From Candidatus Saccharimonadota bacterium (GTDB lineage: Bacteria; Bacillota_I; Bacilli_A; Mycoplasmatales; Hepatoplasmataceae): 32,000 bases of DNA. Position 1 is the stretch's first letter; every line of letters starts with the position of its first letter. This document shows, piece after piece, positions 1,222-30,458 of the stretch. Under the pieces are notes generated by a model, which was not told the DNA's origin, ran no database searches, and was given only the letters and a program-made list of their open reading frames with translations. Location: positions 600,001 to 632,000 of the forward strand of contig AP027131.1 of NCBI GenBank assembly GCA_027925225.1, read 5' to 3'. A program made the translations under genes and the position numbers.

Positions 1222-1240
1222 TATTTTTATAACTATTTCT

Positions 1241-1741: not shown

Positions 1742-1825
1742 AAATTTCCTCAACATAAACAACCTTTTTTTATATAGGATAATTATACTAAACAATAAAG
1801 CAATAAATTAAAAAAGATTAAATAT

Positions 1826-3085: not shown

Positions 3086-3093
3086 TTAAATTA

Positions 3094-3462
3094 TTATTTT
3101 ACAATAAAACCTAAATCTAAATATCTATGTAATAAATTTCTCTTTTCTCTGAAATAAATATAAATATTAGCAATAAATAAAGTAAAAATTGAAAGAAAAA
3201 CAAATCCTATTTCCCTTCTTATAATTAAAAGAAAAAATGGAAAAAATAACATTATAAATTCTTTTCGTTTATTAAATCTAAATTCTACTAAAAAAAGATC
3301 TTTGCTCATTTTATCTACTTTAAATAAAAATCCATTTTTCTTTAAATTGAATGATTCATTTTGAAATTTTTTTAAAATTTTATCTTCACTTAATTCTAAA
3401 AATAAGGACAAAGATTTTAAATTAAATTTTTTTTCTAAAATTAGATTGTTTTCTTTATTCAT
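3094..3462 (-). CDS. hypothetical membrane protein between the EIIB- and EIIC-encoding genes
   Basis: ORF with ATG 3462-3460 (the track start at 3477 is a TTG) and TAA stop. It has two C-terminal hydrophobic helices. Confidence 0.45.
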   Translation of the reverse strand: MNKENNLILEKKFNLKSLSLFLELSEDKILKKFQNESFNLKKNGFLFKVDKMSKDLFLVEFRFNKRKEFIMLFFPFFLLIIRREIGFVFLSIFTLFIANIYIYFREKRNLLHRYLDLGFIVK

Positions 3463-3507
3463 AATTAAATATTTCAAGAAGAATTATAGTTTATTTTAAA
3501 TTAAAAA

Positions 3508-6949: not shown

Positions 6950-6954
6950 AGTAT

Positions 6955-8031: not shown

Positions 8032-8936
8032 TATTTTAATTCTCCCTTTTCAAGATAAAATTCTTCTTTATTTATTCCAAAAATAAATAATTCTAAAAAA
8101 ACAAGAAAAATTACAAGCATTGATGTTGTAACTCAAATTGCATCTTTATTTATAGGATTTGATCAAAGTGCTTCACTTAGAGTTCCGCCTATTGTTAAAA
8201 CATTTTCATTATTAAGACCCATAACTCCTATGGTAGCTTCAAAAATAATTATTAGTGGAATACTTTTAAAAAACTCATATATTAAAAAAGGGAACATTAC
8301 ACCAAATAAAGATATTAATCCACTAACATTTTTTCCTCTTAATGTTTGTGTTTTTCAAAGATATTCTTGTTCATCTAATTTTTTAATTTCCTGATCAATT
8401 CTAACTGACATAATTGACCAACCAGTAAGAATAAAAGAGATAAAAATAATTAAATAAGATTCCTCAAATAGAAGTGTAAAAATTGTAAGAATCAGTAATG
8501 ATGGTAATGCTTGTAACATTTTTATTAAAAAAACAAAGAAGTTTGAAAATTTTTTTCAATAATTTATTGAAAAACTAACAAGACTTGCAATAACCATATT
8601 AACAAAGGAGATTACAATTGCAAGACAAAAAGTAATTAAAAATGAATATCAAAGTCTTGACCATATATCTCTACCAAATTGATCAGTTCCTAAAATATAT
8701 TGATTAGATGAAAGCTGATTTATATCATCGCTTTTTAAAAGTGGATCAATTGTGAAAAAAATTACTATTATAATGGTAACTAAAAGAAAAAATAAAGATA
8801 ATATTAATCCAATTTTTGCAGTAAGACTTGATACAAAAACTCTTTGAAAAGTTTTAGAAAAATTCTCTTTTGATTTAAGAGTTTCAACCTTTGTTTCTGA
8901 TGTATATTTTTCAAATAAATTTATTTCTTCTTTCAT
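8031..8936 (-). CDS. oppC: oligopeptide ABC transporter permease
   Basis: 301 aa, checked stop-free. The N-terminus has the pattern ILGTDQFGRDIWSRLW typical of OppC/DppC. Its TAA overlaps the oppD ATG (TAATG). Confidence 0.8.
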
Positions 8937-8937
8937 T

Positions 8938-9816
8938 TTATTTCAAGTGCCTTATTTTTGGATCTGCAATTTTTGTAAGAATTTCTCTTACACCAAAAAT
9001 TACAACAAATAAAATTGAATAAATCATTATTGAATCTAAAAATAAAACTCCATCTCCACCAGGTTCTTTTATAGATATAACTAATAATGAACTTATTCCA
9101 GGAATATTAAATAAAATTTCAAGTGCAATTGAATTAAAAATTAATAAAACCATCACAACCGGTAAATAATAAATATAATAATAAAAAATTTGAAAACTTA
9201 AATGATTCTTAAGAATATTTTTTTCATTTAAGCCTTTAGTATAAAGAAAATTAAAATAAGTTTTTTCTTTCTCTTTTTTTAAAGATTTTGAAATTAAATG
9301 TGTATAAAAAAATGAAATTGAAATAAAAAGTGAAAAAATAACAAGAAAAATAGGAAGAAAATTATTCTGGTTTTCTAAAAATGTTTTATTTGAAGCAAAC
9401 ATAAAAAACATTATTCCGAAAACAAAAGGTGAAAAAGCATAAGAAAAAATTGCTATAAATTTCGATAAAAATTTTTCTCCTTTAAATTTTTTAATTGAAA
9501 GAAAATAAGAAGAAAAAACTGCTACAATAGAAGAAAAAAATAAAACAATAAAAATTATTAAAAAAGAATATTCAATATTTGTAGAAGCAAAAGAAGAAAA
9601 ATCTGCGCCTTTAGCTACAGAATATCCTCAATCAAAACTTAAAAAGTTTCCAAGATAATCAAAATATTTTGAAGCACCATATTCACTTGTTGAATCAAAA
9701 TTTGGGGAAACTTGTATAAAAATAAAAACTATTGTAAATATAAATCAAATAAAAAATATTGTTTCTAAAACTAATTTTAGAAGTATAAAAAACCATTGTT
9801 TAAATTGCAATGACAT
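8938..9816 (-). CDS. oppB: oligopeptide ABC transporter permease
   Basis: Polytopic permease whose C-terminus ADPKIRHLK matches the OppB/DppB ending. Start is ATG 9816-9814; an in-frame GTG at 9897-9895 is an alternative start. Confidence 0.75.
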
Positions 9817-9932
9817 CTTATCAGATAAAATATTTACTTTTTTATCTTCTATTAAAGTTTGAATGGCGATATATTGGTCTTTGTTATTATTTTTCACTTT
9901 GACTTGTTAATTATATCATTAAGTTAAAATCA

Positions 9933-10784
9933 CTATTTTACAATATCTATAGCATAAAGTGCAGATTTTATAAAATAGAAATAAACAAAAATTCTTATAT
10001 AAATCAAATAAGATGAAGAAGCTATTCTTAAATTTATTTCACCCAGTCAATTGTAATTAAAATAGAAATATTGTGAATAAGGTCTTATTACATATCCCGT
10101 TATAACTCGCGCAATAATTATTGCAAGGGAAATAAAAAATATTAAACTCAAATCCCTATATTTTTTATTTTTTAATAAAAGAAACATTCAAATCATAAAA
10201 ATTATTATAAAAAATAAATTTATTCCTAAATAAATAAAAGAAACTTCTAGTCTCAAATCTTCTACAAAAAATAATAATCATGTAAAAGTTAATGCTAAAA
10301 AAGAAATATAAAGTAAATTAGTTTTCATAATAAATGACTCAGCACTTCCTTTATCATTAATACTTTTATTTTTATACATTCTTCCAAAATATCCAGAAAT
10401 TAAACCTGTAATTGGCAATATGAAAAATGCAATAATTTGAAATCCTCAACCATTTATTAGTGTTCTTGTCGTGTCTGCTATTGCACCAAAAAATATTGCT
10501 TCTATTGGTCCATATAAAAAACCGATTGAAACAATTGTAAGATCATCCATAGAAAAAGGAATTATTTCATTTGTATGAGGAATAACTCTTGTGATATAAG
10601 CTTGAAAAATAAAAATTGCTAAAAACATTCCAAAAATTGGAAGTTTTTCAATTGTAAGAATTTTTGTTCCTTCTTTTCTATATTTAAAAAAATAAAAAAG
10701 TATTGATGATAACAATAAAAAAGAACAAGAAACAACAATAATACCTCAAATTGCTCAATCTAATGAACTATAGTCACTTGTCAT
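9933..10784 (-). CDS. polytopic membrane protein, ECF-transporter S-component-like
   Basis: 283 aa, checked stop-free. The motif YGPIEAIFFGAIADTTRTLINGWGF resembles the conserved G-P...D..G loop of ECF S components. The assignment is tentative. Confidence 0.5.
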
Positions 10785-11686
10785 TATTCATTAATATTTA
10801 AAAATAAAATAATTTTTTTCATTCAAGAATCTATTGTAGATCTTGAAATATTTGCTTTATATATTAAATTGTATTTGTAATTTAAATCAGAAAGTGAATC
10901 TCCTGGATTTTCAAGTCTTAAATTTGCTAAATTTTTTAAATTCATTGGCAATCTAGAAAACTTATTTTCTTTTTTTAATTTCTTAATTGCTTTTATTTGT
11001 TTTTCACTTGCAGTATGTGTTTTAATTTTATTATATTTTTCAACTGATTCTGTTTTTTTAGTAATGGAAATAAAATCTCTTGCAATTCTTTGATCTTCAA
11101 AATAAAGTAAAGAACTAGATGCATTCATAACTTTTAAAAGGTCAGAAATATAGGTAGCTTTTTTAACATAAAAGTGATATTTATCTTCTTTTTTATAAAG
11201 CAAAAAATTTATATTTAAAATTTTAAAAATTTTTTTAAGTAATTTAAATATTATTTCACCTTCAAATTCATCCTTAAAAGATAATTCAAAATGATAAAAC
11301 TTTGATGTGGGAGAAGTTATTGTTCCTTTTGCAAGAAAAATTGCGGACAATATTGGTTTTATATCATTTATATTTTTTAATTTTATTTTATTTACAAAAT
11401 TTGTTAATTTGCTTTTTATATTTTTTAATTCAATATCTAAAATAAAAAAATTTTTTGTATTTATAATATTTAATTTATCGGGATTTATTATTTCTTTTAT
11501 TAATTTTTCTAAATTATCTTTGCTATTTTTTGAAAGATATATTTTTGCTAATAATTTATCATCTGTAAGATTCTTTTTTGAAAAATAAAGAAAAGAAATT
11601 ATCAAATTTTTTTTATCATCTTCTTTTCATGAAAAATTTAATATTTCATATTTTACAAAATCTGTAAAGGATGTTTTTATATTCAT
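10784..11686 (-). CDS. whiA: DNA-binding sporulation/cell-division regulator WhiA homolog
   Basis: 300 aa. It has a degenerate LAGLIDADG-like core (FLAKGTITSPTSKFYHFEL) and a C-terminal HTH region (RLENPGDSLSDLN). Its stop overlaps the downstream ATG by 1 nt. Confidence 0.75.
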
Positions 11687-12612
11687 TATTTGTTTTCTTC
11701 TAAATATTTTTTTGCCTCAAGAGCAGCAATCGCCCCATCAGAAGTTGCAATTACTAATTGTCTATATTTTTTTTCTATTACATCTCCTGCTGCAAAAACT
11801 CCTTTAATTTTTGTTTTATTATTTTTATCTACAATAATATATTTATTTTTATTTAAAATTTCAAAAGGGAGAAAAGACGTATTTGGAATTCACCCTATAT
11901 AAGTAAATATTCCAGAAACTTTTATTTCTCTTTCTTTTTTTGTTTTTGAATCTTCTATAATAATAGATTTAATATTTCCATTTAAATGATTTATTTTTTT
12001 AATTACTGAATTATTATAAATTTCAACATTTTTGTTTTCTTTTAATTCTTTTGTTATATATTCAAAAGCTGTTGGTTCATTTGTAATATTTACAATATTT
12101 AATTTATCAACAAAATTAATAGCAAAAATGCTTTCTTCTAAAGCCGAATTTCCTCCACCTATTACTGCAATTTTTTCACCTTTATAAAATGGCGCATCAC
12201 AAATTAAACAAGTATGAATTCCTTTTCCAAAAAGTAAATTATAATCATTTATTTCTAGTTTTTTTGCAGTTAATCCAGTTGCAATTATTACTATTCTTGT
12301 TTTAATAATTTTTTTATCTTTTAGATAAATAATTTTAATTTCTTTATCTAAATCATCTATCTTTTCTATTTCTTCTATTAAAATTTTTGCTCCTAATTTT
12401 TTAGCATGATTTAAAAAATCAATTGCTATTTCAGAACCAGTTTTCCCAATAATTCCTGTGTAATTTTCAACCCTAAAAGTATTAAGTAATTTCCCTCCAG
12501 GAACACTATTTTCAATAATTAAATTATCTATCGATAATCTTGATAGATAAATAGAAGCTGTAAGACCTGCTGGTCCCGCTCCTAAAATCACTACATCATA
12601 ATCAACTTTCAT
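11686..12612 (-). CDS. trxB: thioredoxin-disulfide reductase
   Basis: 308 aa. Motifs seen: GAGPAG, a redox CxxC (CLIC), GGGNSALEE, GVFAAGD. Confidence 0.9.
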
Positions 12613-18216: not shown

Positions 18217-18867
18217 TTAAATATTTAGGTTTTTTTTATCAATTAATTCAAAAAAACTATTTAAATTAGTTTTGTATTTATTTACTTTTTTAAATTTAGA
18301 TTTATATTTTTCAATATCAGATATTACAAAAAGATGATAAAGATCAATTGCAAATATTTCTAATTTATTATTCCTTATTGTACATATAACTCTGAGTTCT
18401 TTAGAAGTTTTATTATGTTCATTATTTTCAATATGATGTAATTTTAAATGATAAATTTCCTCAGATATTAAAAATCCTAAATTTAGAGAAAATAAAATTC
18501 TTTTTATTCGCCCATCTTTTTTAATTTTAAAAGGATCCTTTTCTTTTCTATCGTTTGAAAGAGCTAGATTCATAAGATTATTAATATAATCTTTTTTATT
18601 TTGAAAATATTCACAAATATTTTTATAAATAAAATCTAAATATTCATTTTCATCTGGTTTGTGAATTTTGACCATATTTGTAAAAGTGTAATTTTTTAAT
18701 ATATAAGATTTTTTAGCTAAAAGATTAATAAAAATTTCATTAGGATATTCTTCATTTTTTTTGTCAAATTTACTTAAAGATATTTTTCTATTAAGAGATA
18801 AATTTTTCTTAAAATTAACAGAATGAATTGTATTTTGATTTATTTTTTCTAAATCAATTTTATCCAT
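18217..18867 (-). CDS. hypothetical 216-aa protein, downstream partner of the DUF4065-like gene
   Basis: Uninterrupted ATG...TAA ORF starting 9 nt after the upstream stop. The C-terminal segment ELRVICTIRNNKLEIFAIDLYH vaguely recalls the RelE/HigB strand pattern. No firm family. Confidence 0.6.
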   Translation of the reverse strand: MDKIDLEKINQNTIHSVNFKKNLSLNRKISLSKFDKKNEEYPNEIFINLLAKKSYILKNYTFTNMVKIHKPDENEYLDFIYKNICEYFQNKKDYINNLMNLALSNDRKEKDPFKIKKDGRIKRILFSLNLGFLISEEIYHLKLHHIENNEHNKTSKELRVICTIRNNKLEIFAIDLYHLFVISDIEKYKSKFKKVNKYKTNLNSFFELIDKKNLNI

Positions 18868-18876
18868 ATTTAAATA

Positions 18877-19431
18877 TTAATATTCTTCTCTTTTAAAATA
18901 TTCTTCAATTATATTTTCAGATAAAATTTCTTTAGAATTTTTATCTTCTAAATTTCATGCTTCAATTCAAGAATTATCTTTATGGCTTCAATTAACTAAT
19001 GAAAAATCACTAATATCAAAAATATTGTTTAATAAAAAATCATCAATAAAATTTTTTGATTCATTATTTTCATTCATCTTTTTTGAATACAAAGAAAACT
19101 CATCTTTTATATTTTCATTTAATTTATTTTTAGATACTTTCATATATTCTTTATATTCTTCAAATATTTCTTTTTCAACAGGCCCAAATTGTCTTGCTTG
19201 AAATTTTGGATTAGAAAAAAGATAAATATTATCTTTTTTAATAATTTCACCTTCTTCATTTTCATTTTTTATTTCTTGATTTAATTTTTTATTAAAACCA
19301 CCTCAATAAGCAAATAAAAAATAAATTGATTTTTGAAATTTAATTGAAGAAATTTTCTTATTATATTTCTTTTCATAAAGAAGTGTAATATATTTTGCTA
19401 AATCTTTTTTATTATAAATACCTTTTTGCAT
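18877..19431 (-). CDS. DUF4065 / Panacea-domain-like protein (SocA/GepA-type putative antitoxin)
   Basis: 184 aa with 4 TGA=Trp. The pattern IKFQKSIYFLFAYWGG...FQARQFGPVEKEIFEEYKEY matches the remembered DUF4065 core (KLQKLLYF...W..GPV...vY..yk). Confidence 0.6.
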
Positions 19432-20639: not shown

Positions 20640-21470
20640 CTAATCTAATTCTAAAATTTCCTTTAATTTCTCTAAAACAAAACTATTATCCAATTTTACT
20701 ATTAGTTTATCTTTATTTAATTCTATATTTTGTTTTAACAAATTACTATAAAATGTTTTTCTTATTAATTTTTTATTATCTTTTTTTACTAAATTTTCAA
20801 CATCTCTTGTATTTAAATTTTTGCTTAAAATTTCTTTAAAAATATTTAATTGTTTTTCTTTTTCAAAATTAATAAGCATTTTAACTTTTCCAAAAGAAAT
20901 CTTATTTATAACTAAAGCTTCTAATATTTTTTCATCTAATTTACTTACTCTTAAAATATTACTAACATATGAACGAGATTTATTTATTTTTTTTGCAAGT
21001 TCCTCATGTGTTCAATTGTTTTTTTCTAATATATTTTTATATGCTAGACTTTCTTCTATTTTATTCAAACCTTCTCTTGAAGTATTTTCAATTAGAGCAA
21101 ATTCAGCAGATTTAGAATCTGTTACATTTTTTATAATAGAAGGTATTGATTTTATATTTAATAATTTAAAGGCGCGGAGTCTTCTTTCTCCTGCTATTAA
21201 AAAATATTGATTACTATTATTTTCATCTTCCTTTAAAAGTATTGGAAAAAGTAATCCATTTTCTTTTATAGAAAAAGCTAATTCTTTTAATTTTTTTTCA
21301 TTAAATTGTTTTCTGGGCTGATTAGGATTTTCTTTGATTTTTACTAAATCAACTGAAACCACTTCACCTAAAATATTATTTTGTTCTACATCATTTATTA
21401 AATTCTCTAAATTTTTATTAAAAATATTATTTAACCCTTTTTTATAATTATTTTTATTAAAATTACTCAC
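20640..21470 (-). CDS. parB: chromosome partitioning protein ParB/Spo0J
   Basis: 276 aa. Start is GTG 21470-21468, overlapping the parA end. Motifs seen: ENPNQPRKQF, IAGERRLRA, and the HTH WTHEELAKKINKSRSYVSN. Confidence 0.85.
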
Positions 21471-22242
21471 TGTAACCTCTTTTTAATTGTAAAAATTCCT
21501 CTATAAAACTTTCATAAGCTTTTGCACCTTTGCAATTTTTATCATAATCAAAAATACTTTGACCAGAAGAAGGAGATTCAGCTAATTTTATATTTATTGG
21601 GATTCTTGTTTTTAGAATTTTATCTTTAAAAAATATATTTAATTCTTTTTCTATTTCTTTAGAAAAATTAATTCTTTTATTAAATTTTGTAAGCAATATT
21701 CCATCAATATAAAGTTTTCTATTATATCTTTTTTTTACAATAGAAATTGTTTCTAAAAGTTGACTTAACCCTTCAAGCGAAAAATAATCTGCTTGCATTG
21801 GAATAATAAGTGAATTTGAAATTGAAAGTGCATTTTTACTCATAAGTCCAAGTGCAGGAGGACAATCAAAAATAATATAATCATATTCTTTTTTTATTTT
21901 TTCTATAAAAGGAAAAAAAATTAGTTCTTCTGTACGATTATCTCTTACAAGTTGTACTTCAACACCTGCAAGACCCATAGAAGAAGGGACCACATCAACA
22001 TTTTTTGTTGTTGTTTTTAAAATTAGTTTTTTTGGATCAAGATTTTTACTAATAATTAAGTCATAAACATCATAATTTGGATAATCATTATCTATACCAA
22101 TTCCTCTTGTCAAATTTGCTTGAGAATCTATATCTATTAATAAAACCTTTTTATTTTTAATTCCAAGACCAGCAGCCATATTTAAAGCTGTTGTAGTTTT
22201 ACCAATTCCTCCTTTTTGATTTATTATGCTTACAATTTTCAT
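21463..22242 (-). CDS. parA: chromosome partitioning ATPase ParA/Soj
   Basis: Deviant Walker A NQKGGIGKTT is present. ATG 22242-22240 is preferred over the track's TTG at 22260, because a TATAAT sits just upstream. Confidence 0.9.
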   Translation of the reverse strand: MKIVSIINQKGGIGKTTTALNMAAGLGIKNKKVLLIDIDSQANLTRGIGIDNDYPNYDVYDLIISKNLDPKKLILKTTTKNVDVVPSSMGLAGVEVQLVRDNRTEELIFFPFIEKIKKEYDYIIFDCPPALGLMSKNALSISNSLIIPMQADYFSLEGLSQLLETISIVKKRYNRKLYIDGILLTKFNKRINFSKEIEKELNIFFKDKILKTRIPINIKLAESPSSGQSIFDYDKNCKGAKAYESFIEEFLQLKRGYSE

Positions 22243-22286
22243 ATTAATAAAATTATACAAAGTTAATAATCTTTAAATTAAAAAAT

Positions 22287-22312
22287 AAAACCAAAATAAA
22301 AATTTTGGTTTT
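22287..22312 (-). terminator. rho-independent terminator closing the small-protein array
   Basis: Perfect 11-bp stem aaaaccaaaat/attttggtttt with a 4-nt loop, T-rich 3' side on the minus strand. It lies between array gene 1 and the parA promoter. Confidence 0.6.
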
Positions 22313-22340
22313 ATTATATGTAATATATTTATTAAAATCA

Positions 22341-22583
22341 TTAATTTTTTATAAAATACAATATTTTTTTTAAAAATTTACATATTGATTTATATAAATT
22401 TCAAATTGAAGCTATATAAAAACCTAAATCAAAAAAAATTCATGTTAAAAATAAAATTTTTAAAAGTTTTATTTCAAAATCAGTATGTTCTCAATGATCA
22501 ATTTGATTTTTTGTTAAAATTGTAAGATATATAAAAAATGTACCTAATCCTAAAAAAATAAAAAATAAAATAAAGTTTTTCAT
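22341..22583 (-). CDS. array paralog 1: 80-aa two-TM protein (divergent C-terminus)
   Basis: Sequence MKNFILFFIFLGLGTFFIYLTILTKNQIDHWEHTDFEIKLLKILFLTWIFFDLGFYIASIWNLYKSICKFLKKILYFIKN. RBS is AAAGGA. Confidence 0.65.
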
Positions 22584-22630
22584 ATTATTAAAATCCTTTC
22601 TATTTAATTTTAAAAATTCAAATAATAAAA

Positions 22631-22659
22631 AATACTTAAAATTGTTAATTTTAAGTATT
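22631..22659 (-). terminator. inter-unit hairpin terminator (downstream of paralog 2)
   Basis: 13-bp arms aatacttaaaatt / aattttaagtatt with a 3-nt loop, followed on the minus strand by TTTTTATTATTT. Confidence 0.6.
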
Positions 22660-22678
22660 TATAAAATTTAAAATATAT

Positions 22679-22927
22679 TTATTTATTTTCTTCTTTTTTA
22701 AAAATTAATTTTATAAATTTATATAAATTTCAAAATGAAGCCATAACAAATCCAAGATCTAAAATGCAAATTGATGTGAATAATACTTTTAAGATTTTAA
22801 AATCAAAATTTGGATCATTGTGCTCATTCGAAGAAAAAGAGTTAATTTCATTTTTTATATTTGCTGCAAAATATCCAAAAAGCATTCCTAATCCTAAAAA
22901 AATTAAAAATCATATAAATGTTTTCAT
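22679..22927 (-). CDS. array paralog 2: 82-aa two-TM protein
   Basis: Sequence MKTFIWFLIFLGLGMLFGYFAANIKNEINSFSSNEHNDPNFDFKILKVLFTSICILDLGFVMASFWNLYKFIKLIFKKEENK. The frame was verified. Confidence 0.7.
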
Positions 22928-22974
22928 ATTATTAAAATCCTTTCTATTTAATTTTAAAAATTAAAATAATAAAA

Positions 22975-23003
22975 AATACTTAAAATTAATAATTTTAAGT
23001 ATT
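22975..23003 (-). terminator. inter-unit hairpin terminator (downstream of paralog 3)
   Basis: Same 13-bp arms with loop aat and a T-run on the minus strand. Confidence 0.6.
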
Positions 23004-23022
23004 TATAAAATTTAAAATATAT

Positions 23023-23286
23023 TTATTTATTTTCTTCTTTTTTAAAAATTAATTTTATACATATATATAAATTTCAAAATGAAGCTGTTAAAAATCCAAA
23101 ATCAAAAAAAATTGATGCAGAAAATAATATTTTATAAAGTTTAAGATCAAAATAAGAATCATCATGATTATAGTGATTATAATCCTCTATTTTTTCCTTA
23201 AAATCAACTGTAAAATATATAAAAATCATTCCTAAACCTAAAAAAATAAGAAATCAAATTAAATTTTTTATATTAAATTTTTTCAT
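23023..23286 (-). CDS. array paralog 3: 87-aa two-TM protein
   Basis: Sequence MKKFNIKNLIWFLIFLGLGMIFIYFTVDFKEKIEDYNHYNHDDSYFDLKLYKILFSASIFFDFGFLTASFWNLYICIKLIFKKEENK. RBS is AAGGAGAA. Confidence 0.75.
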
Positions 23287-23333
23287 ATTTATTTATTCTC
23301 CTTATTTTAATTTTTAAAATTAAAATAATAAAA

Positions 23334-23362
23334 AATACTTAAAATTATTAATTTTAAATATT
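23334..23362 (-). terminator. inter-unit hairpin terminator (downstream of paralog 4), one mismatch
   Basis: Same arms, but the right arm reads aattttaaatatt (g to a), giving one mismatch. Confidence 0.5.
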
Positions 23363-23381
23363 TATAAAATTTAAAATATAT

Positions 23382-23645
23382 TTACTTATTTTCTTCTTTT
23401 TTAAAAATTAATTTTATACATATATATAAATTTCAAAATGAAGCTGTTAAAAATCCAAAATCAAAAAAAATTGATGCAGAAAATAATATTTTATAAAGTT
23501 TAAGATCAATATAAGAATCATTATGATTGTGATAATTATAATGATCAATTTCATATTTTGTATTTACTGTAAAATATATAAAAATCATTCCTAAACCTAA
23601 AAAAATAAAAAATCAAATAAAATTTTTTATACTAAACTTTTTCAT
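23382..23645 (-). CDS. array paralog 4: 87-aa two-TM protein
   Basis: Sequence MKKFSIKNFIWFFIFLGLGMIFIYFTVNTKYEIDHYNYHNHNDSYIDLKLYKILFSASIFFDFGFLTASFWNLYICIKLIFKKEENK. Confidence 0.75.
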
Positions 23646-23692
23646 ATTTATTATTACCTTTCGTTTTAATTTTAAAAATTAAAATAATAAAA

Positions 23693-23721
23693 AATACTTA
23701 AAATTGTTAATTTTAAGTATT
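23693..23721 (-). terminator. inter-unit hairpin terminator (downstream of paralog 5)
   Basis: Perfect 13-bp arms with loop gtt. Confidence 0.6.
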
Positions 23722-23740
23722 TATAAAATTTAAAATATAT

Positions 23741-23995
23741 TTACTTATTTTCTTCTTTTTTAAGAATTGATTTTATACAGATGTATAAATTTCAAAATGA
23801 AGCAATAAAAAAACCAAAATCTAAGAAAAGAAAAGAAGAAAATAAAACTCTTAACAATACATAGTCTTTATGTTCAAAATCAGGATAATTAGTATTAATT
23901 TCTTCCATTGTTTTTCCTAAAAAATATGCAAAAAGAATTCCCAATCCAAAAAAAATAAAAAATCAAATTAAGTTTTTTATATTAAAATTTTTCAT
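23741..23995 (-). CDS. array paralog 5: 84-aa two-TM protein
   Basis: Sequence MKNFNIKNLIWFFIFFGLGILFAYFLGKTMEEINTNYPDFEHKDYVLLRVLFSSFLFLDFGFFIASFWNLYICIKSILKKEENK. Confidence 0.75.
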
Positions 23996-24041
23996 ATTTA
24001 TTTATTCTCCTTATTTTAATTTTAAAATTAAGAAAATAAAA

Positions 24042-24070
24042 AATACTTAAAATTGTTAATCTTAAGTATT
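24042..24070 (-). terminator. inter-unit hairpin terminator (downstream of paralog 6), one mismatch
   Basis: The right arm reads aatcttaagtatt (t to c), giving one mismatch. Confidence 0.5.
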
Positions 24071-24089
24071 TATAAAAATTAAAATATAT

Positions 24090-24347
24090 TTATTTATTTT
24101 CTTCTTTTTTAAGAATTGATTTTATACAGATGTATAAATTTCAAAATGAAGCAATAAAAAAACCAAAATCAAAAAATATTATTGATGTAAATAATATTTT
24201 TAAAAAAACTATTTCTAAATTAGTTAATTCAAATCCAATAGGACGGTTAATTTTATACATAATATTACTTGCAATATAAATAAAAAGGAATGATAATCCT
24301 AAAAAAATTAAAAATCAAATAAAATTTTTTATATTAAATTTTTTCAT
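24090..24347 (-). CDS. array paralog 6: 85-aa two-TM protein
   Basis: Sequence MKKFNIKNFIWFLIFLGLSFLFIYIASNIMYKINRPIGFELTNLEIVFLKILFTSIIFFDFGFFIASFWNLYICIKSILKKEENK. Confidence 0.75.
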
Positions 24348-24404
24348 ATTTACTTATTCTCCTTATTTTAATTTTAAAAATTAAAATAATAAAAAATACT
24401 TAAA

Positions 24405-24433
24405 ATTGATAATTTTAAGTATTTATAAAAATT
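24405..24433 (-). terminator. inter-unit hairpin terminator (downstream of paralog 7)
   Basis: Perfect 13-bp arms with loop gat. Confidence 0.6.
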
Positions 24434-24442
24434 AAAATATAT

Positions 24443-24690
24443 TTATTTATTTTCTTCTCTTTTAAAAATTAATTTTACAAATTTATATAAATTTCAAAAT
24501 GAAGCTGTAAAAAAGCCAAGATCTAAAAGAATCCATGCTGAAAATAAAATTTTATAAAGCTTAATTTCAAAATCAGAATGAGTACCATGATTAATTTCGT
24601 TTTTTGTATTTACTGTAAAATATATAAAAATCATTCCTAAACCTAAAAAAATTAAAAATCAAATAAATTTTTTTATATTAAAGTTTTTCA
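24443..24690 (-). pseudogene. array paralog 7, frameshifted at an A5 tract (or phase-OFF copy)
   Basis: The span is 248 nt, not a multiple of 3. The N-terminus MKNFNIKKFIWFLIFLGLGMIFIYFTVNTK is in frame with the ATG. The family C-terminus EINHGTHSDFEIKLYKILFSAWILLDLGFFTASFWNLYKFVKLIFKREENK lies in another frame. Read as given, the ORF stops at TAG 24525-24523. Confidence 0.7.
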
Positions 24691-24782
24691 TATTTATCAC
24701 TACCTTTCTATTTAATTTTAGAAATTAAAATAAAATTTTTAAAAAAAATAAATAAGTTTTGATAATAAGATTTATATTTAGG

Positions 24783-24854
24783 TTAATTAAACAAAACTAA
24801 AAGAAAAAAGAAAAAATAATTAACATATAAAATAAATAATTTTTGTTTAATTAA
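24783..24854. promoter_or_regulatory. perfect 14-bp inverted repeat in the divergent control region between the array and the tail operon
   Basis: ttaattaaacaaaa (24783-24796) and ttttgtttaattaa (24841-24854) are exact reverse complements 44 nt apart. They lie inside the 197-bp intergenic region 24691-24887. Confidence 0.4.
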
Positions 24855-24887
24855 AAATGATTTTAAAACTAAAATAAAAGGAGAAAA

Positions 24888-26846
24888 ATGAAAATTTTTT
24901 TATTCAAAAATACAAAAATTAATAAAAATAGAACTATTCTTAATTTTATGGGAAACGAAAACTTAAATTCTTATTTAAAAAAAAATAATAAAAACTTTAA
25001 TTCAAATAATGATAAAAATTTCTTAGAAATTTCTGGCGAGGAAATAAAAAATGATTTTTTTAAAGAAAAATTTCAAATTTTAGATTTAGACAAAGATTTC
25101 TTAAACTATGATTTTGCAATTGTAAAGTCTTTTCCATATTCAAATGGAAAAGACTTTTATTTTTTTATAAAAAATATAAAAATAGTAAGTTCTAGTCAAA
25201 TTGAATTGTCTTTTGAATTTGACTTTATTTCAACTTGAAATATTTGAGAAATAATATTAATTAATGAAAAAATAGCTATTAAACAAGGACATTTAAAACA
25301 AGGAATTAATTTTGAATTAAATAAAAAAAAATTAGCAAAAAATGCTTTCTTTAGAAAAAAACAATTATTAAGTAAAAACCATAATTTAAAAACAATTTAT
25401 ATTCCAGAATCATTAATAAATAACAATGAAAAAAAAATGAAGGAAATTTTTAAATTTGATAAATGATTAATTTGTTTTATGGATTCTAATTTTGGAATGG
25501 GTGTAGATTTTAAAAATGTAATAAAAATAAGTGATCCAAATTCAAATGGAACTTTTGAATATAAATATAATATAATTGCTTTACCTTTCTCTGAAAATAA
25601 TGAAATTATGTTTAGAGGAAAATATACATCAAAAGAAAACATTATTACAGTTTCAAAAGATACAAAAATAAATGCATTTGAAATTTATAAAAATTTACAA
25701 GAAAATAAAACTTTTATTTATGGTTATTTAATAGATAGACTGCCCTTAAATAATATAAACTTTATTTCCGATGAAACAGGAAATTATATTACTGGAATTG
25801 ATATTTATGAAGTAAAAACTGATCCAAATAAGGATAATGGTGATGATAGTGATCAATATAATATTATTGTTCCAATAATTAAAGAAATTAGCTCAAATGT
25901 AAAAATAAATTATAAATCTTCACAAAAATTATTTAATTGAGAAGAAGCAGATAATAATTTTAAAAATGATAATGATTGAAAAAATATTATCTGAAAAAAA
26001 GAACAAGAAGCAATTTTAAATTTTGCTCCTTTTAAAAAATATGAAATAGGTATTTATACAGAAAATACAAACTCAGGATTTAAATTTGATTTAAACGATT
26101 TAATAAATTTAAATGTTCATGAAAATGATTATCTTAATATATTTGTAACTTTTGAACCGTATATTTTTGATACTGCTTTTGAATTAAAAGAAAGAGAAAA
26201 TACAGAAAATAATACTGATTATTATTATGGAGAAAGAATTTTTAAATTAAAACGTTCTATTGTAATTCCATATGAAAATTCAAAATGAATTGAAAATATG
26301 AAAAATAAAGAATTATCGGGATCTCAAAATTTTTTAACACCTGGGAAAAAAGCAGTTGGTTCTGTATTGTCTTCTCTAATTCCTGAAACTAAATTTTTAG
26401 ATTGAATGATACCTGGAGCAAAAATAGGAGCAAAATTATTTAAATCTATATTTGGGAAAGAAGACGAAAAAAGCGAAGAACCTGATTCAACCGCAAATAC
26501 AGGAACAGATTTAAATGTTGAAATATTAAGCAGTTATGATTTTAAAACTTTAAAAATAACAAAATATTTAGAAAGTGATGAAAATAAATTAGCATTTCAT
26601 ATTCATAAATATGGATATAACTTATTTGATGAACATTATTATCTGTCAGAAATACTTTTAGCAAGAACTAGATTTAATTTTATACAACTATCTGATTTTG
26701 AAACTGAAGAAATATTTAGTAATATACCTAATATTTATAAAAGTGAATATTTAGAAAGATTAAAATCTGGAATAACATTTTGAAATTTTATACAAGATGA
26801 ATTTGCTGATGTTTATGGAATAAATAAATTTATATTTAAATACTAA
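24888..26846 (+). CDS. phage tail knob / distal tail-tube protein, phi29 gp9-like
   Basis: RBS is AAAGGAGAAAA. The three track ORFs share one frame and are joined by 9 TGA=Trp, with the gaps checked, giving 652 aa. The N-domain YSNGKDFYFFIKNIKIVSSSQIELSFEFDFISTWNIW compares with remembered gp9 [35 protein letters not shown]. The C-terminus HKYGYNLF...RTRFNFIQ...SGITFWN compares with gp9 HKYGYKIN...RKAFNYVQ...NGITLWH. Confidence 0.7.
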
Positions 26847-26877
26847 TAATTAAAAAACATTAAAAGAGGTGAAAAAT

Positions 26878-27543
26878 ATGGCAATAAAAAATCCAGATGC
26901 AAAACAATTATCTTTAATTCAAATTTTAACTGATTATTTAATTACAATAGATGCAACTTTAGAAGGTGGAATAAATCAAGAAATAATAAATGAAAATAAT
27001 TTTACATCATTAAATCAAATAAAAACACTTGTTGAAACAGATACATATAATATATCAGCAAATGAAGCAAGTATTGGTACACTATCTAATCTTAATACTA
27101 CTGCAAATGCTGATTTAGTTCAATCTATAAACGAATTAAAAGATGCAATTAATATGATAAATGGTAAAGGAACTAGTTCTTATCCAGTTGGAACAATAGT
27201 AATAGCTCCAACTGCTCCTCAAATAGGAGGCTGAGAAAATTTAGGAGAAGTTTTAGAAGGACAAGCAATAATAGGCGGAACTTCAACCTATGGTTCAGTA
27301 ATGTCTCATACACACAATGTTGAATATAATGGTTCAGCAGATGATTATGAACATAAATATTGAGATATATGTGATAATATGAGTTCAGGAAATTATAGTA
27401 GAGGAAGCTCAAACAATAGTGGTAATTTATATGTTGATATAGCAAATAGATTACAAATTATTTCAACAGGAGGAAAAGAAAATATTCCATATGGAATAGG
27501 AATGGGATTAGGGCTTTATGTTTGAAAAAAAAATTCAAAATAA
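26878..27543 (+). CDS. tail-fibre / receptor-binding-like protein with tail-collar-type C-domain, paralog 1
   Basis: AGAGGTG lies 6 nt before ATG 26878. 221 aa with 3 TGA=Trp. Motifs seen: the fibre motif NADLVQSINELKDAI, the collar-like YPVGTIVIAPTAPQIGGWENLG and the H-x-H motif MSHTHNVEYNGSA. Confidence 0.65.
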
Positions 27544-27576
27544 TTTTATTTAAAATTAAAAAATAAAGGAGGAAAT

Positions 27577-28245
27577 ATGAATACAAAAAAAGGTAATTTA
27601 GATCAAGTAATTTTTGCTTCAATTTTAACAAATCAAGTTATACCAACAGATGCAGCTAGAGAAGGTGGAGAAAATCAAGAAATAATAAATGATAATAACT
27701 TTACATTGATAAACCAAGCAAATGAAAATATTAATAAAAACATATCAAATATTTCTATAAATACAAATAACATAGGTAATTTATCTAGTCTTAAAACTAA
27801 TATGAAATCAAATTTAGTAGATGCAATTAACGAGCTAAAAGATGAAATTGATTTAATAACAGGAGGAAATGGAACTACTCCTTATCCAATAGGAACAATA
27901 GTAATAGCTCCAACTGCTCCCGAAATAGGAAATTGAGAAGATTTAGGAGAAATCTTAGAAGGCCAAGCAATAATAGGTGGATCTTCATCTGATGGTTCAA
28001 TAATAGCACATACACATAATATTGAATATAATGGTTCAGCAGAGGGAATTAGTAACAAATTTTGAGATGAATCTGCAGATGATATGAGTGGAAATTATAG
28101 CAGAGGAGCTTCAGATAATGGTGATGGTAATTTTTATGCAGATATAGCAAGCAAATTAAAAATTACAACTACAGGAAATGATAAAAATAGAGCTTATGGA
28201 ATTGGACTAGGATTAGGGCTTCATCTTTGAAAAAGAATTAGTTAA
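27577..28245 (+). CDS. tail-fibre / receptor-binding-like protein, paralog 2
   Basis: RBS is AAAGGAGGAAAT. 222 aa, roughly 60% identical by eye to paralog 1. Motifs seen: SNLVDAINELKDEI, YPIGTIVIAPTAPEIGNWEDLG, AHTHNIEYNGSA. Confidence 0.65.
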
Positions 28246-28283
28246 TTAAAAGTAAAAATGACAATAAGAAATTAATATTTTTT

Positions 28284-28410
28284 ATGTTTCAAGAAACAAC
28301 AAAAAAATGAATTTTATATTTTAATAAATTTATTAATTGTATTTACTTTAATTACGTTAGGATTATTGTTTTTTATAACCATAATAGAACTACTAATATT
28401 TTTTGGATAA
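28284..28410 (+). pseudogene. possible frameshifted remnant duplicating the N-terminal TM of the downstream membrane protein
   Basis: The ATG-frame reads MFQETTKKWILYF.... The +1 frame reads ...LINLLIVFTLITLGLLFFITIIELLIFFG*. Together they mirror MKKEKKILYFLIALSIIFTLVILGLLGG of the next gene. No single intact frame exists. Confidence 0.25.
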
Positions 28411-28456
28411 TTAAAAAATAAATAAAATAAAGGAATTTAACAATAAAAAAATAAAA

Positions 28457-29131
28457 ATGAAAAAAGAAAAAAAGATACTTTATTTTTTAATAGCTTTATC
28501 AATTATATTCACCTTAGTAATATTGGGATTGTTGGGAGGAACTCTTGCAAACAATAATTCTTATGCTTATGATGAATTTAATAAATGAATGATGTGTAGA
28601 AATGCAATGTTTGCATTTACAGCACTAGCTTCTTTATCAATAATAGCATTAATAATATTTATTATATTTAAAAATACAAATCAAGAAAATAAATTGAAAA
28701 TTGAAAAAAAAGAAATAAATAAGAATGATAATTTAAATGAAATAAATGATAAAAATATAACAAAAAATGTAAATAACTTTAAAAAAGAAATTAAAAATGG
28801 AAAGAAAACTTATAAAAAAGGATTATTGTGTCTTTTATTTTTTGGCTTATTTCTTATATTAATACCAATAATGATTAATACTAAAAATACTATTAATGAT
28901 TTAAAAGATGATTTAAGATATTTATCTGATGTTGAATTATTAGTTCTAAAAAATCAAAGAATTTTACTTGTTTCATTAATTTTTATTGATGCTTTTTTTG
29001 CATTAATGTCTTTTAAATATTTTTATAATTCTTTAATTAATTTAAATATTTTAGGAAAAAATCTAGAAATAGAAGAAAAGAAAAAGAGAGAAAGAAACTT
29101 AGAAGAAGAAGAAATAAATTTTATCAATTAG
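28457..29131 (+). CDS. 224-aa four-TM membrane protein with charged central loop and Glu/Lys-rich C-tail (hypothetical)
   Basis: ATG 28457 is in frame with track ORF 28589-29131 through one TGA. There are four hydrophobic helices, and the tail reads EIEEKKKRERNLEEEEINFIN. Confidence 0.6.
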
Positions 29132-29132
29132 A

Positions 29133-29179
29133 TATATATAAAAAAAAGGAAGTTAAATTCTTCCTTTTTTTTATATATC
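29133..29179. terminator. bidirectional rho-independent terminator (about 20-bp stem)
   Basis: atatataaaaaaaaggaag (7-nt loop) cttccttttttttatatat. It lies between the convergent tail operon and the tRNA operon. Confidence 0.75.
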
Positions 29180-29230
29180 TAATTTACTATTTTAAAATTC
29201 CTTTTACATCTTTAAAATAAAATCTTAAAA

Positions 29231-29306
29231 TGGTGGTTCAGGACGGAATCGAACCGCCGACACAGGGTGCTTCAAACCCTTGCTCTACCGACTGAGCTAC
29301 TGAACC
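29231..29306 (-). tRNA. tRNA-Phe (GAA), CCA encoded
   Basis: Reverse complement is GGTTCAGTAGCTCAGTCGGTAGAGCAAGGGTTTGAAGCACCCT...GGTTCGATTCC...ACCA. Anticodon loop is TTGAAGC. Confidence 0.9.
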
Positions 29307-29311
29307 TTAAT

Positions 29312-29387
29312 TGGCGGTTCTGACGGGAATCGAACCCGCGATCTCCTCTGTGACAGAGAGGCGTGATAACCACTTCACTACAGAACC
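29312..29387 (-). tRNA. tRNA-Asp (GTC), CCA encoded
   Basis: Reverse complement begins GGTTCTGTAGTGAAGTGGTTATCAC. Anticodon arm is CCTCT-CTGTCAC-AGAGG. T-arm is GGTTCGATTCC. Confidence 0.9.
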
Positions 29388-29389
29388 AT

Positions 29390-29466
<77 letters not shown>

Positions 29467-29480
29467 ATATTATTTTAAAA

Positions 29481-29573
29481 TGGCGGAGATGGAGGGATTC
29501 GAACCCCCGCGCAGCTTTCACCACCTGGTAGTTTTCAAGACTACTCCCTTCAGCCAGACTTGGGTACATCTCC
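29481..29573 (-). tRNA. tRNA-Ser (TGA), class II, CCA encoded
   Basis: 93 nt with a long variable arm. Anticodon arm is GTAGT-CTTGAAA-ACTAC. Discriminator is G. Confidence 0.9.
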
Positions 29574-29596
29574 AAAGCCATTTTAAAATGTTTGAT

Positions 29597-29673
29597 TGGT
29601 GGTCCGTGCTGGACTCGAACCAGCGACCAACCGGTTATGAGCCGGTGGCTCTAACCAACTGAGCTAACGGACC
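29597..29673 (-). tRNA. tRNA with CAT anticodon, probable tRNA-Ile2 (lysidine type)
   Basis: Anticodon loop is CTCATAA. The body GGTCCGTTAGCTCAGTTGGTTAGAGC resembles Firmicute tRNA-Ile(CAU). Its position in the conserved order Met-Ile-Ser-fMet-Asp-Phe supports this call. Confidence 0.7.
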
Positions 29674-29697
29674 ATACAATACAAATTAATTAATTGT

Positions 29698-29774
29698 TGG
29701 TAGCGAGAGAGGGATTTGAACCCACGACCTATCGGATATGAACCGAGCGCTCTAACCAACTGAGCTACCTCGCC
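29698..29774 (-). tRNA. elongator tRNA-Met (CAT), CCA encoded
   Basis: Anticodon loop is TTCATAT and the acceptor stem GGCGAGG is fully paired. Confidence 0.8.
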
Positions 29775-29775
29775 A

Positions 29776-29851
29776 TGGTGGAGCGGATGAGATTCGAACT
29801 CACGACCTCCTATGTGCAAGACAGGTGCTCTACCAACTAAGCTACCGCCCC
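29776..29851 (-). tRNA. tRNA-Ala (TGC), CCA encoded
   Basis: Acceptor stem GGGGCGG carries the G3:U70 identity pair. Anticodon loop is CTTGCAC. Confidence 0.9.
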
Positions 29852-29852
29852 A

Positions 29853-29929
29853 TGGTCGGGAAGACAAGACTTGAACTTGCGACCCTTGCGTCCCAAACGC
29901 AATGCTCTGCCAAACTGAGCTACTTCCCG
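29853..29929 (-). tRNA. tRNA-Pro (TGG), CCA encoded
   Basis: Anticodon arm is TTGCG-TTTGGGA-CGCAA. Acceptor stem is CGGGAAG. Confidence 0.9.
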
Positions 29930-29963
29930 AAGAGAGATTTTTTTAAATTTATCCTATAAAATT

Positions 29964-30040
<77 letters not shown>

Positions 30041-30041
30041 A

Positions 30042-30126
30042 TGGTGCGGGTGGAGGGACTCGAACCCTCACGTCTCTCGACACTAGATCCTAAGTCTAGC
30101 GTGTCTGCCAATTCCACCACACCCGC
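30042..30126 (-). tRNA. tRNA-Leu (TAG), class II, CCA encoded
   Basis: 85 nt with a long variable arm. Anticodon arm is CTAGA-CTTAGGA-TCTAG. Confidence 0.9.
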
Positions 30127-30129
30127 ACA

Positions 30130-30206
30130 TGGTGCCGTTGATAGGAATCGAACCTACGACCTACTGATTACAAGTCAGTTGCTCTGGCCTGCTGAGCTAC
30201 AACGGC
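30130..30206 (-). tRNA. tRNA-Thr (TGT), CCA encoded
   Basis: Anticodon arm is ACTGA-CTTGTAA-TCAGT. Confidence 0.9.
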
Positions 30207-30220
30207 TTGGGTTGTAAGAT

Positions 30221-30296
30221 TGGTGGGGCATATAGGACTTGAACCTATGACCTCCTGCTTGTAAGGCAGATGCTCTCCCAACTGAGCTAATACCCC
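30221..30296 (-). tRNA. tRNA-Val (TAC), CCA encoded
   Basis: Anticodon arm is TCTGC-CTTACAA-GCAGG. Confidence 0.9.
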
Positions 30297-30301
30297 TTTA
30301 T

Positions 30302-30377
30302 TGGTGACCCATACGGGACTCGAACCCGTGAATGCTAGGATGAAAACCTAGTGTGTTAACCTCTTCACCAATGGGCC
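30302..30377 (-). tRNA. tRNA-Glu (TTC), CCA encoded
   Basis: Anticodon arm is CTAGG-TTTTCAT-CCTAG. Confidence 0.9.
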
Positions 30378-30383
30378 AAAAAA

Positions 30384-30458
30384 TGGCGCTCCGGAGAGGA
30401 TTCGAACCTCCGACCAACTGGTTAACAGCCAGCTGCTCTACCGCTGAGCTACCAGAGC
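30384..30458 (-). tRNA. tRNA-Asn (GTT), CCA encoded
   Basis: Anticodon arm is GCTGG-CTGTTAA-CCAGT. Discriminator is G. Confidence 0.9.

Follow-up and report, generated by a model that had tools for sequence, protein, structure and literature searches.

In the current study, we analysed a stretch of 32 kb (hereafter the window), i.e., about 5% of the 662-kb genome of Candidatus Hepatoplasma vulgare, and found between parA and 14 tRNA genes an island that is the remainder of a ~10-kb phi29-like podophage of Mollicutes. It holds genes for a tail knob and two tail fibres next to genes for small membrane proteins. The best-supported reading of our results is that the island genes have been domesticated (exapted) by the host, while their role is proposed here more tentatively. 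That phage tail genes stand at this locus without the rest of the phage, and are kept rather than decaying, had been put forward in a preliminary description of this DNA, and is borne out by the predicted structure of the knob, by comparison of the locus with that of a sister strain, and by the ratio of nonsynonymous to synonymous substitutions (dN/dS). H. vulgare is a mollicute whose genome was obtained from the midgut glands of the woodlouse Armadillidium vulgare (PMC10928387), and the 652-amino-acid (aa) open reading frame (ORF) of the island is identical to HPAVJP_5640. The window has a guanine plus cytosine (GC) content of ~19% and requires genetic code 4 (TGA read as Trp), with nine in-frame TGA codons in the knob gene alone. 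Read with this code, parA is followed by seven small minus-strand genes. Beyond a divergent spacer of 196 bp come the 652-aa gene, a pair of paralogs (221 and 222 aa) and, after a spacer of 211 bp, a gene for a 224-aa protein with four transmembrane (TM) segments; a hairpin terminator and the 14 tRNA genes follow.

The 652-aa protein (24888-26846, plus strand) had been called a phi29 gp9-like knob from the sequence alone. An exhaustive HMMER search of 1.8 billion representative proteins recovered 20 relatives, and an AlphaFold2 model built from an alignment of 19 relatives reached a predicted local distance difference test score (pLDDT) of 74.7 and a predicted template-modelling score of 0.69. 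In a Foldseek comparison of the model with the PDB, all nine matches at E<=0.001 (5.8e-20 to 1.6e-12, probability 1.00) were tail knobs, with the tenth match at E 0.13. The match to phi29 gp9 (5fb5) had an E of 5.8e-20 and a template-modelling score of 0.51-0.62, and those to phage C1 gp12 (4eo2) and to the Andhra knob (8egs) had an E of ~1e-12. Among the predicted viral structures of BFVD, the top match was gp9 of phage Nf (E 9.5e-23), followed by podovirus proteins named 'major tail proteins'. The structure search, which could have spoken against a tail identity, returned tail-knob similarity and nothing else, and the modelled fold confirms the 652-aa protein as a predicted tail knob of the phi29 gp9 type. 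Compared with the solved knobs of this type (phi29 gp9 5fb5/5fb4/5fei, Streptococcus phage C1 gp12 4eo2 and Staphylococcus phage Andhra 8egs), it has the same full-length fold (E 6e-20 to 2e-12, template-modelling score 0.42-0.62) and a similar size, but a sequence identity of 12-13%. It also differs from them in being encoded in a bacterial chromosome, in surroundings that lack genes for a connector, lower collar, capsid or packaging; in addition, the Hepatoplasma host is wall-less and no wall-degrading tip protein like phi29 gp13 is present.

Searches by sequence were far less informative than the structure. The knob sequence gave nothing usable against Pfam, PHROGs, NCBIfam or the PDB, and a search of the PDB with a profile of the 19 aligned relatives produced a single chance match. 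One relative (P0009) matches the Pfam family phi29_gp9_C (PF20934) collinearly at its C-terminus, at E 8e-6 and 25.3 bits (cut-off 27), while the window knob has no match to this family at E<=1, so that the link to Pfam is transitive and structural rather than direct. Likewise, the window knob had no tblastn match among GenBank phages, and P0009 gave marginal matches, exclusively to phi29-like Bacillus and Staphylococcus phages, the best-scoring of which fell on tail or knob genes. Scans of viral, genome and metagenome contig collections with the knob and fibre alignments yielded no relative.

In phi29, the lower-collar tube ends in the knob, whose long, hydrophobic, pore-forming loops exit the tube and breach the membrane (PMC6542822). 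The window knob contains an 80-residue segment of low model confidence (residues 463-542), partly hydrophobic or amphipathic, and this long internal loop lies at ~70-83% of the chain, i.e., at the relative position of the membrane-active loop of gp9. The corresponding loop is more hydrophobic and richer in Gly and Ala in the phage relatives and in the other chromosomal knobs than in the window knob. The window knob would be of the hexamer type, and no lower-collar gene was found at the locus.

The two genes following the knob encode fibre paralog 1 (HPAVJP_5650, 221 aa; 26878-27543, plus strand) and fibre paralog 2 (HPAVJP_5660, 222 aa; 27577-28245, plus strand), which are 55% identical. Paralog 1 consists of an N-terminal adaptor (MAIKNPD...EGG.NQEIIN.NN), a coiled-coil stalk with L..LV.SINELK, and a C-terminal tip with the motifs HTH and YGIGxGLG..WK. 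The 511-aa fibre of a related phage contig (L003, see below) matched them by tblastn at E 3.3e-12 (paralog 1) and 1.5e-12 (paralog 2). The adaptor is common to both Hepatoplasma fibres and to the fibres of phage contigs L003 and L005 (M..KNPD.K...EGG..Q.IN.NN), and the tip is common to the Hepatoplasma fibres and those of L003 and L004 (P.G[ST]I...P..G.W.DLG...GQ..IGG...H.H...YG.G.G..H.W[KR]R). PHROG tail-fibre matches to the stalk were weak (E 3.5e-5 to 3e-4; paralog 2 against the tail fibre phrog_25848, E 4.7e-5). The pair had initially been labelled as tail-fibre or collar-like proteins, of which the fibre part holds and the collar part is not supported: none of the seven members of the fibre family matches the Collar domain PF07484 at E<=1, and a PDB profile search with the fibre gave nothing relevant. 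The AlphaFold2 model of the fibre, from a four-sequence alignment, has a pLDDT of 40 and is too poor to judge the fold. Based on the knob fold and on the homology of the fibre adaptor and tip, the three genes therefore encode the knob and the fibre proteins of a small phi29-like Mollicutes phage.

Most relatives of the knob are encoded on phage-like contigs of 4-11 kb that use code 4 and are known as unannotated assemblies. On contig L003 (6.9 kb; 1-6867), the knob and the 511-aa fibre are accompanied by a connector-like gene (phrog_2038), a 152-aa gene and a terminase-like ATPase. Contigs L005 (9.6 kb; 1-9601) and L009 (10.2 kb; 1-10249) have ~30 identical bases at both ends and are therefore complete circles; they carry the knob together with genes like packaging ATPases, and further ORFs in them are taken, by size and position only, as capsid and connector. 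The knob gene lies beside connector-like genes in L003 and L009. In L003 and L005, the next gene after it is that of the fibre, which in L005 too has the adaptor described above, and L009 has a 525-aa candidate receptor-binding protein. A Rep_1 gene of the rolling-circle type is found in contig L004 (10.8 kb; 1-10790), and none of L003, L004, L005 and L009 was seen to encode a protein-primed polymerase. These ~10-kb code-4 genomes apparently represent an undescribed phage group, may be among the smallest tailed-phage genomes, and presumably infect these symbionts.

The comparison with these phages defines what the island has lost. When every ORF of L003 and L009 was used in code-4 tblastn against the window, the two sister-strain contigs (L001 and L002) and a further mollicute contig (L006), only the knob and fibres matched, and the connector, capsid, small collar-like and ATPase genes had no match, even as a fragment, in the window, L001 or L002. 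Pfam searches of the window ORFs of no known function gave no integrase or repressor, no replication gene was found at the locus either, and the window contains no att-like repeat (attachment site) or integration scar of tRNA-Phe. The earlier claim that the 32 kb holds no other phage genes is upheld by the Pfam and tblastn searches together, and the attributes of a prophage (integrase or att site, repressor, capsid, portal, terminase) were not found at the locus.

A sister strain carries the same locus. Its contig L001 (Logan, run ERR14127475) encodes ychF, parB and parA, two genes of 704 and 104 aa, one small two-TM gene, a 647-aa knob that is 77% identical to that of the window, and the start of fibre 1. 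The 704-aa and 104-aa genes (L001 3072-5454) are the PADLOC candidate defence pair PDC-M49A/B (E 3e-91 and 7e-16) and sit between parA and the single small two-TM gene, in the slot that six extra small two-TM copies occupy in the window; the slot is therefore a variable hotspot. Contig L002 of the same run, which we infer to continue L001, begins within a fibre that shares 73% C-terminal identity with fibre 2, and then encodes four further tip-domain proteins (316-1125, 2318-2995, 3238-3909 and 3934-4857), two of which are fused to N-terminal two-TM anchors, one being duplicated. A complete phage is absent from this locus on L001 and L002: parA, PDC-M49, one small two-TM gene, the knob, the fibres and the tip paralogs are found there instead.

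Pairwise dN/dS between the two strains (Nei-Gojobori), which is approximate in such AT-rich genes and for which the neighbouring genes provide an internal comparison, was 0.30 for the knob (dS 0.43), 0.29 for parB (dS 0.54), 0.25 for ychF (dS 0.47) and 0.08 for parA (dS 0.41). The knob is under purifying selection as strong as that on parB and ychF, contrary to the expectation for neutrally evolving genes. In addition, the dS of the knob equals that of the flanking genes and the locus is shared with the sister strain, which indicates vertical inheritance and capture before the strains split. The fibres and membrane proteins evolve faster than the knob and their gene content turns over: the fibre fragments gave a dN/dS of 0.47-0.60 (dS 0.43-0.66; 0.47-0.50 for paralog 1, and 0.60 on 88 C-terminal codons for paralog 2), the small two-TM genes 0.55-1.0 (dS 0.31-0.65), and the fibre-tip paralogs number two in the window and about six in the sister strain. 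Given the dN/dS of the knob and its vertical inheritance, we therefore regard the genes as an exapted, host-maintained set and not as a decaying prophage, and the bacterium itself probably uses the knob-fibre genes.

The state of the reading frames had already been taken as a sign of maintained, host-adapted genes. At the base composition of the island, TAA and TAG arise at 0.091 per codon, so that the chance of an open frame is ~1e-27 for 652 codons and ~6e-10 for 222 codons; the long frames are therefore not due to chance. The use of TGA for Trp and the strong ribosome-binding sites (RBSs; AAGGAG before the knob) agree with that assessment, although the 4-TM gene lacks a visible RBS. Within the knob ORF (25124-25157, plus strand; codons ~80-90, ~240 nt from the start), a hairpin with a 14-bp stem precedes a T-run and is kept in the sister strain with one compensatory change from G-C to A-T; going by its sequence and predicted fold, it may be an intragenic terminator or attenuator.

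Knobs of this kind were also found in two other chromosomal settings. In H. crinochetorum Av (CP006932), X271_00542 (P0016; L007 10001-11917) encodes an intact knob of 638 aa that stands alone: no fibre gene follows, and its neighbours are a KAP NTPase and several methyltransferase genes. This genome was published, after a keyword search, as having 'no detectable phage' gene, and was described as being without mobile elements (PMC3942034). A neighbour-joining tree places P0016 with the L009 phage knob (40% identity) and not with the H. vulgare knob (24%), which clusters with those of L003 and L005; this points to separate captures from different phage clades. The third case is a 52-kb code-4 contig of another mollicute (L006), in which a lone 766-aa knob-fibre fusion (10001-12301), followed by a small two-TM ORF, lies near ThsB-TIR, N6/N4 methyltransferase and GIY-YIG genes. 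All three chromosomal knob loci are found in a neighbourhood of defence genes, and knob frames of 652, 647 and 638 codons have remained intact in three lineages.

The leftward part of the island had been described as seven monocistronic paralogs of an 80-87 aa protein with two TM segments, in agreement with our gene map and with the upstream block of each copy. All lie on the minus strand: paralog 1 (80 aa, 22341-22583), the most divergent copy, with a different C-terminal tail and 106 bits against the hidden Markov model (HMM) of the family; paralog 2 (82 aa, 22679-22927); paralog 3 (87 aa, 23023-23286), whose repeat unit is 90% identical in DNA to unit 4; paralog 4 (87 aa, 23382-23645); paralog 5 (84 aa, 23741-23995); paralog 6 (85 aa, 24090-24347), the likely ortholog of the single 88-aa copy of the sister strain (54% identity); and paralog 7 (82 aa from ATG, 24443-24691; a GTG at 24700 would add 3 aa), which adjoins the knob gene. 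ORF calls and the family alignment support these assignments, with the family HMM for paralogs 1 to 5 and sequence comparison for paralog 6. The repeat units of ~340-360 bp are 71-90% identical in DNA, and each has its own near-identical upstream block of ~95 bp with an AT-rich hairpin, a T-run and an RBS, which fits separate transcription of each gene. An AT-rich hairpin (AAAACCAAAAT / ATTTTGGTTTT; 22285..22312, fold dG -12.7 kcal/mol), between the start of parA and the last gene of the array, is likely the terminator that closes it.

All seven paralogs have two conserved hydrophobic segments, the second of which contains an invariant Asp-x-Gly-Phe and is followed by a W-N-L motif, and they differ mainly in a 20-25-residue loop between the segments. 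The charge distribution, judged by eye, suggests that both ends lie inside the cell and the loop outside. Pooled dN/dS was 0.85 in the loop and 0.43-0.73 in the TM segments, which indicates relaxed or diversifying evolution; positive selection on the loop was considered and is not supported, the value not being above 1. The proteins matched no described holin, exclusion or immunity family in Pfam, PHROG or NCBIfam, and their likeness to holins is one of architecture only (two TM segments and a charged C-terminal tail). The paralogs also look mosaic across the array (22341-24691), the first half of copy 7 resembling copy 4 and its tail copy 2, a pattern in the alignment that points to gene conversion or recombination within the array. 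Two small proteins encoded after a knob, the 85-aa two-TM one of L009 and the 83-aa one of L006, were considered as members of the small two-TM or anchor family, which the HMMs do not support.

The 224-aa 4-TM protein (28457-29131, plus strand) relates the membrane proteins to the fibre tips. Its first half is a two-TM anchor module (HMM 136 bits), and the same anchor carries fibre-tip domains in the sister strain. Its second half (residues 120-194) is a distant small two-TM module, matching positions 7-75 of the small two-TM HMM with 21 bits (E 0.015 at Z=1e6), while none of the other membrane proteins of the window scored with this HMM. PADLOC gave no match for either the small two-TM or the 4-TM proteins. 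In the tethered tip proteins of the sister strain, K-rich flanks lie on either side of a K-poor loop, which would, by the positive-inside rule, place the tips in the cytoplasm. The 4-TM gene had been placed in one rightward operon with the knob and fibres, closed by a strong terminator. The terminator is well founded: a long perfect hairpin (AGATATATATAAAAAAAAGGAAG / CTTCCTTTTTTTTATATATCT; 29131-29181) with a 21-bp stem, T-runs and a dG of -21.3 kcal/mol is a bidirectional terminator separating the island from tRNA-Phe. Membership of the 4-TM gene in the operon is uncertain because of the 211-bp spacer upstream and the lack of a visible RBS. In this spacer (28246-28456), a 42-codon frame (MFQETTKKWILYF...) that the HMM search missed is faintly like the start of the anchor module and may be a decayed first anchor copy, the anchor being duplicated in the sister strain.

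We tentatively propose that the island could serve in interference with, or exclusion of, phages, a role to which we give somewhat less than an even chance. We favour it because the soluble proteins show no sign of export and no lysis gene is present, because the tethered tip paralogs appear to face the cytoplasm, because different phage clades were captured in different hosts, and because all three loci lie among defence genes, the window also having a SocA/Panacea pair 3 kb from the island. A further reason is the conservation of N-terminal stretches: residues 1-20 of the knob, as well as the fibre adaptor, belong to the regions that host and phage copies have best conserved, and these N-termini may include the phage-docking surfaces. 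Under this hypothesis, the module would act against phages of its own kind. The knob and fibres, having no export signal, would be made in the cytoplasm and would replace or trap those of an infecting phage on nascent tails, leading to defective progeny, and in the sister strain they could also be retained on the cytoplasmic side of the membrane by the tethered tip paralogs, with the same outcome. The two-TM proteins, each transcribed on its own and variable in the loop, would sit in the membrane and block entry through the knob pore, i.e., they would act in superinfection exclusion, and with expansion of the array to its seven copies a broader set of phages would be excluded. Taken as a whole, this combination of tail sabotage and entry block commands roughly a third of our belief.

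Several points weigh against this proposal. We know of no bacterial precedent for a structural-protein decoy encoded in the chromosome, and the closest known phage knobs are 27-34% identical to the host knob, which leaves co-assembly with a current phage unproven. The hydrophobic loop is kept in all three chromosomal knobs, which suggests that the membrane-insertion activity itself is under selection, something that a pore-forming effector would explain at least as readily as a decoy. Phage debris also accumulates in defence islands, making the neighbourhood weak evidence. The small two-TM family has no match in Pfam, PHROGs, NCBIfam or PADLOC and no significant relative in the phage contigs, all membrane topology was judged by eye, and the search for head genes spanned 32 kb of the genome, elsewhere in which such genes could sit.

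The first alternative to be considered is that of a weapon with its own immunity, which ranks close behind the defence reading and which we consider unlikely enough to place second. According to this model, a capsid-less, tailocin-like particle of a knob hexamer and fibre trimers would be released by some cells, its tips would bind rival wall-less cells and its knob loops would kill them; jointly, and with the same low probability, the small two-TM paralogs would provide immunity and the 4-TM protein would be the release factor. The knob and its loop are intact, as are the two fibres with adaptors and tips, and the fibre-tip paralogs have strongly diversified between close strains (two and about six), as targeting proteins do. 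The small membrane genes on the opposite strand, with their own upstream blocks, recall colicin immunity genes and orphan immunity arrays. Furthermore, the knob loop of phi29 is hydrophobic and pore-forming (PMC6542822), and a wall-less target has no barrier before its membrane. Against these points, there is no export signal or signal peptide, no regulator gene, and no holin, lysin or other recognisable release or secretion gene in the island by Pfam, PHROG and NCBIfam. The model also leaves the cytoplasm-facing tethered tips unexplained, H. crinochetorum has kept its knob without a fibre gene, the dN/dS of the small two-TM loop (~0.85) is not above 1, and all three chromosomal loci lie in defence-gene neighbourhoods. 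A literature search found no podovirus-derived bacteriocin, and we know of none.

The two readings share the view that wall-less bacteria have repeatedly captured a podophage knob, with or without fibres, as a host function, be it a pore-forming killer with an immunity array or a tail-spoiling decoy, and this broader statement comes close to an even chance. If true, either form would amount to a new class of phage-derived conflict system and to the first case of a podovirus tail part being domesticated.

It is improbable that the island is an inert remnant of a defective prophage, surviving by chance or slow deletion. Such a remnant would fit an island made up solely of phage-derived genes, with no integrase or regulator, and its position in a variable region beside a tRNA array, where phage debris is common. 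However, the knob evolves like its housekeeping neighbours, its frames have stayed intact in spite of 0.09 stops per codon, strong RBSs have been retained, and the 0.66-Mb genome is streamlined, that of H. crinochetorum having been described without mobile elements (PMC3942034).

Even less probable is that the genes belong to an active phage with its head and replication genes elsewhere, or to a satellite that lends tail tip and fibres to the heads of a helper. The adaptor and the N-terminus of the knob, as the parts expected to attach to a phage collar, are conserved, the analysis covered just 5% of the genome, and related complete phages evidently circulate. Long vertical residence, as seen from a dS like that of the flanking genes and the same locus in the sister strain, speaks against an active element, as does the lack of an integrase, replication, packaging or att feature at the locus, and the published Hepatoplasmataceae genome papers report no phage genes (PMC10928387, PMC3942034; one by keyword search only). 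Least probable of all is surface adhesion, by which the tip domain would attach the symbiont to the midgut-gland epithelium of the isopod with the anchored versions as working adhesins: the tip domain is indeed fused to membrane anchors in the sister strain, and hepatoplasmas are regarded as ectosymbionts in which adhesins have been sought (PMC10928387), but the charges around the anchors would put the tip inside the cell, the H. vulgare fibres have neither anchor nor signal, and both the conservation of the knob and the lone knob of H. crinochetorum would be unexplained.

Some features of the island are shared with known systems. As in the R- and F-type tailocins, chromosomal tail genes occur without head, packaging or replication genes (within the 32 kb and at the sister locus), are maintained by selection, and include fibres that diversify between strains. 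However, tailocins have long contractile or flexible tails with sheath, tube, baseplate, regulator and lysis cassette, whereas the island encodes only a podovirus knob and fibres; no tailocin-type sheath, tube, baseplate or tape-measure gene was found in the island, and holin, endolysin, spanin and repressor gave no matches. T4 Imm is an 83-aa two-TM superinfection exclusion protein that blocks DNA entry. The small two-TM genes are like such exclusion proteins in size (80-87 aa), in having two TM segments with both ends predicted inside, in having their own upstream block and in their phage-derived neighbours, but no sequence similarity of theirs to known exclusion, immunity or holin families was found, and they form a seven-copy tandem array with a variable outer loop. 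Pore-forming colicins and polymorphic toxin systems have immunity genes and orphan immunity arrays, which, like the small two-TM genes, encode integral membrane proteins, lie on the opposite strand beside a putative pore-forming effector, and are tandem and divergent; here there is no homology, and the putative effector is a phage tail part instead of a toxin with translocation and receptor domains. As an analogy only, mouse Fv1, derived from gag, is also a viral structural gene that was captured and kept under selection, with more than one virus lineage involved in related hosts, although it is eukaryotic and the tail mis-assembly proposed here is hypothetical.

To our knowledge, all known domesticated phage tails (R- and F-type tailocins, extracellular contractile injection systems and type VI secretion) derive from long tails. 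A selected, capsid-less, phi29-like knob-fibre module would extend phage domestication to the smallest tail type, and also to wall-less bacteria, in which a membrane-opening knob can act directly. Moreover, Hepatoplasma genomes have been described as free of phage genes, and the knob loci show that phage-derived genes were overlooked, because their sequences are so divergent.

The remaining features of the locus concern its borders and expression. The parA gene (21463-22260, minus strand; ORF call with code 4) and the 14 tRNA genes (29231-30458, minus strand; tRNA calls) flank the island. The shared control region of 197 bp that had been placed between the two divergent modules exists as a spacer of 196 bp (24692-24887; ~13% GC) between paralog 7 and the knob gene, while promoters in it can only be surmised: a promoter scan found 62 sites against 73.5 expected and is uninformative in such AT-rich DNA. 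At this spacer, near parAB, the cumulative GC skew has its minimum and the skew changes sign (24500-24800), with the genes to the left of it on the minus strand and most of those to the right on the plus strand. A replication origin at the island, suspected from the skew beside parAB, is not supported, DnaA boxes not being enriched (12 against 9 expected). The other uncharacterised ORFs of the window have housekeeping Pfam matches (including PTS EIIB, an ECF transporter S component, WhiA, Lgt and ArgRS) or none. Finally, 3 kb from the island (18217-19431, minus strand), a gene for a 184-aa protein, whose SocA/Panacea antitoxin domain is matched by Pfam (E 1.6e-5) and by phrog_1281 (E 8e-15), and a downstream 216-aa partner without a family assignment are likely a toxin-antitoxin pair.

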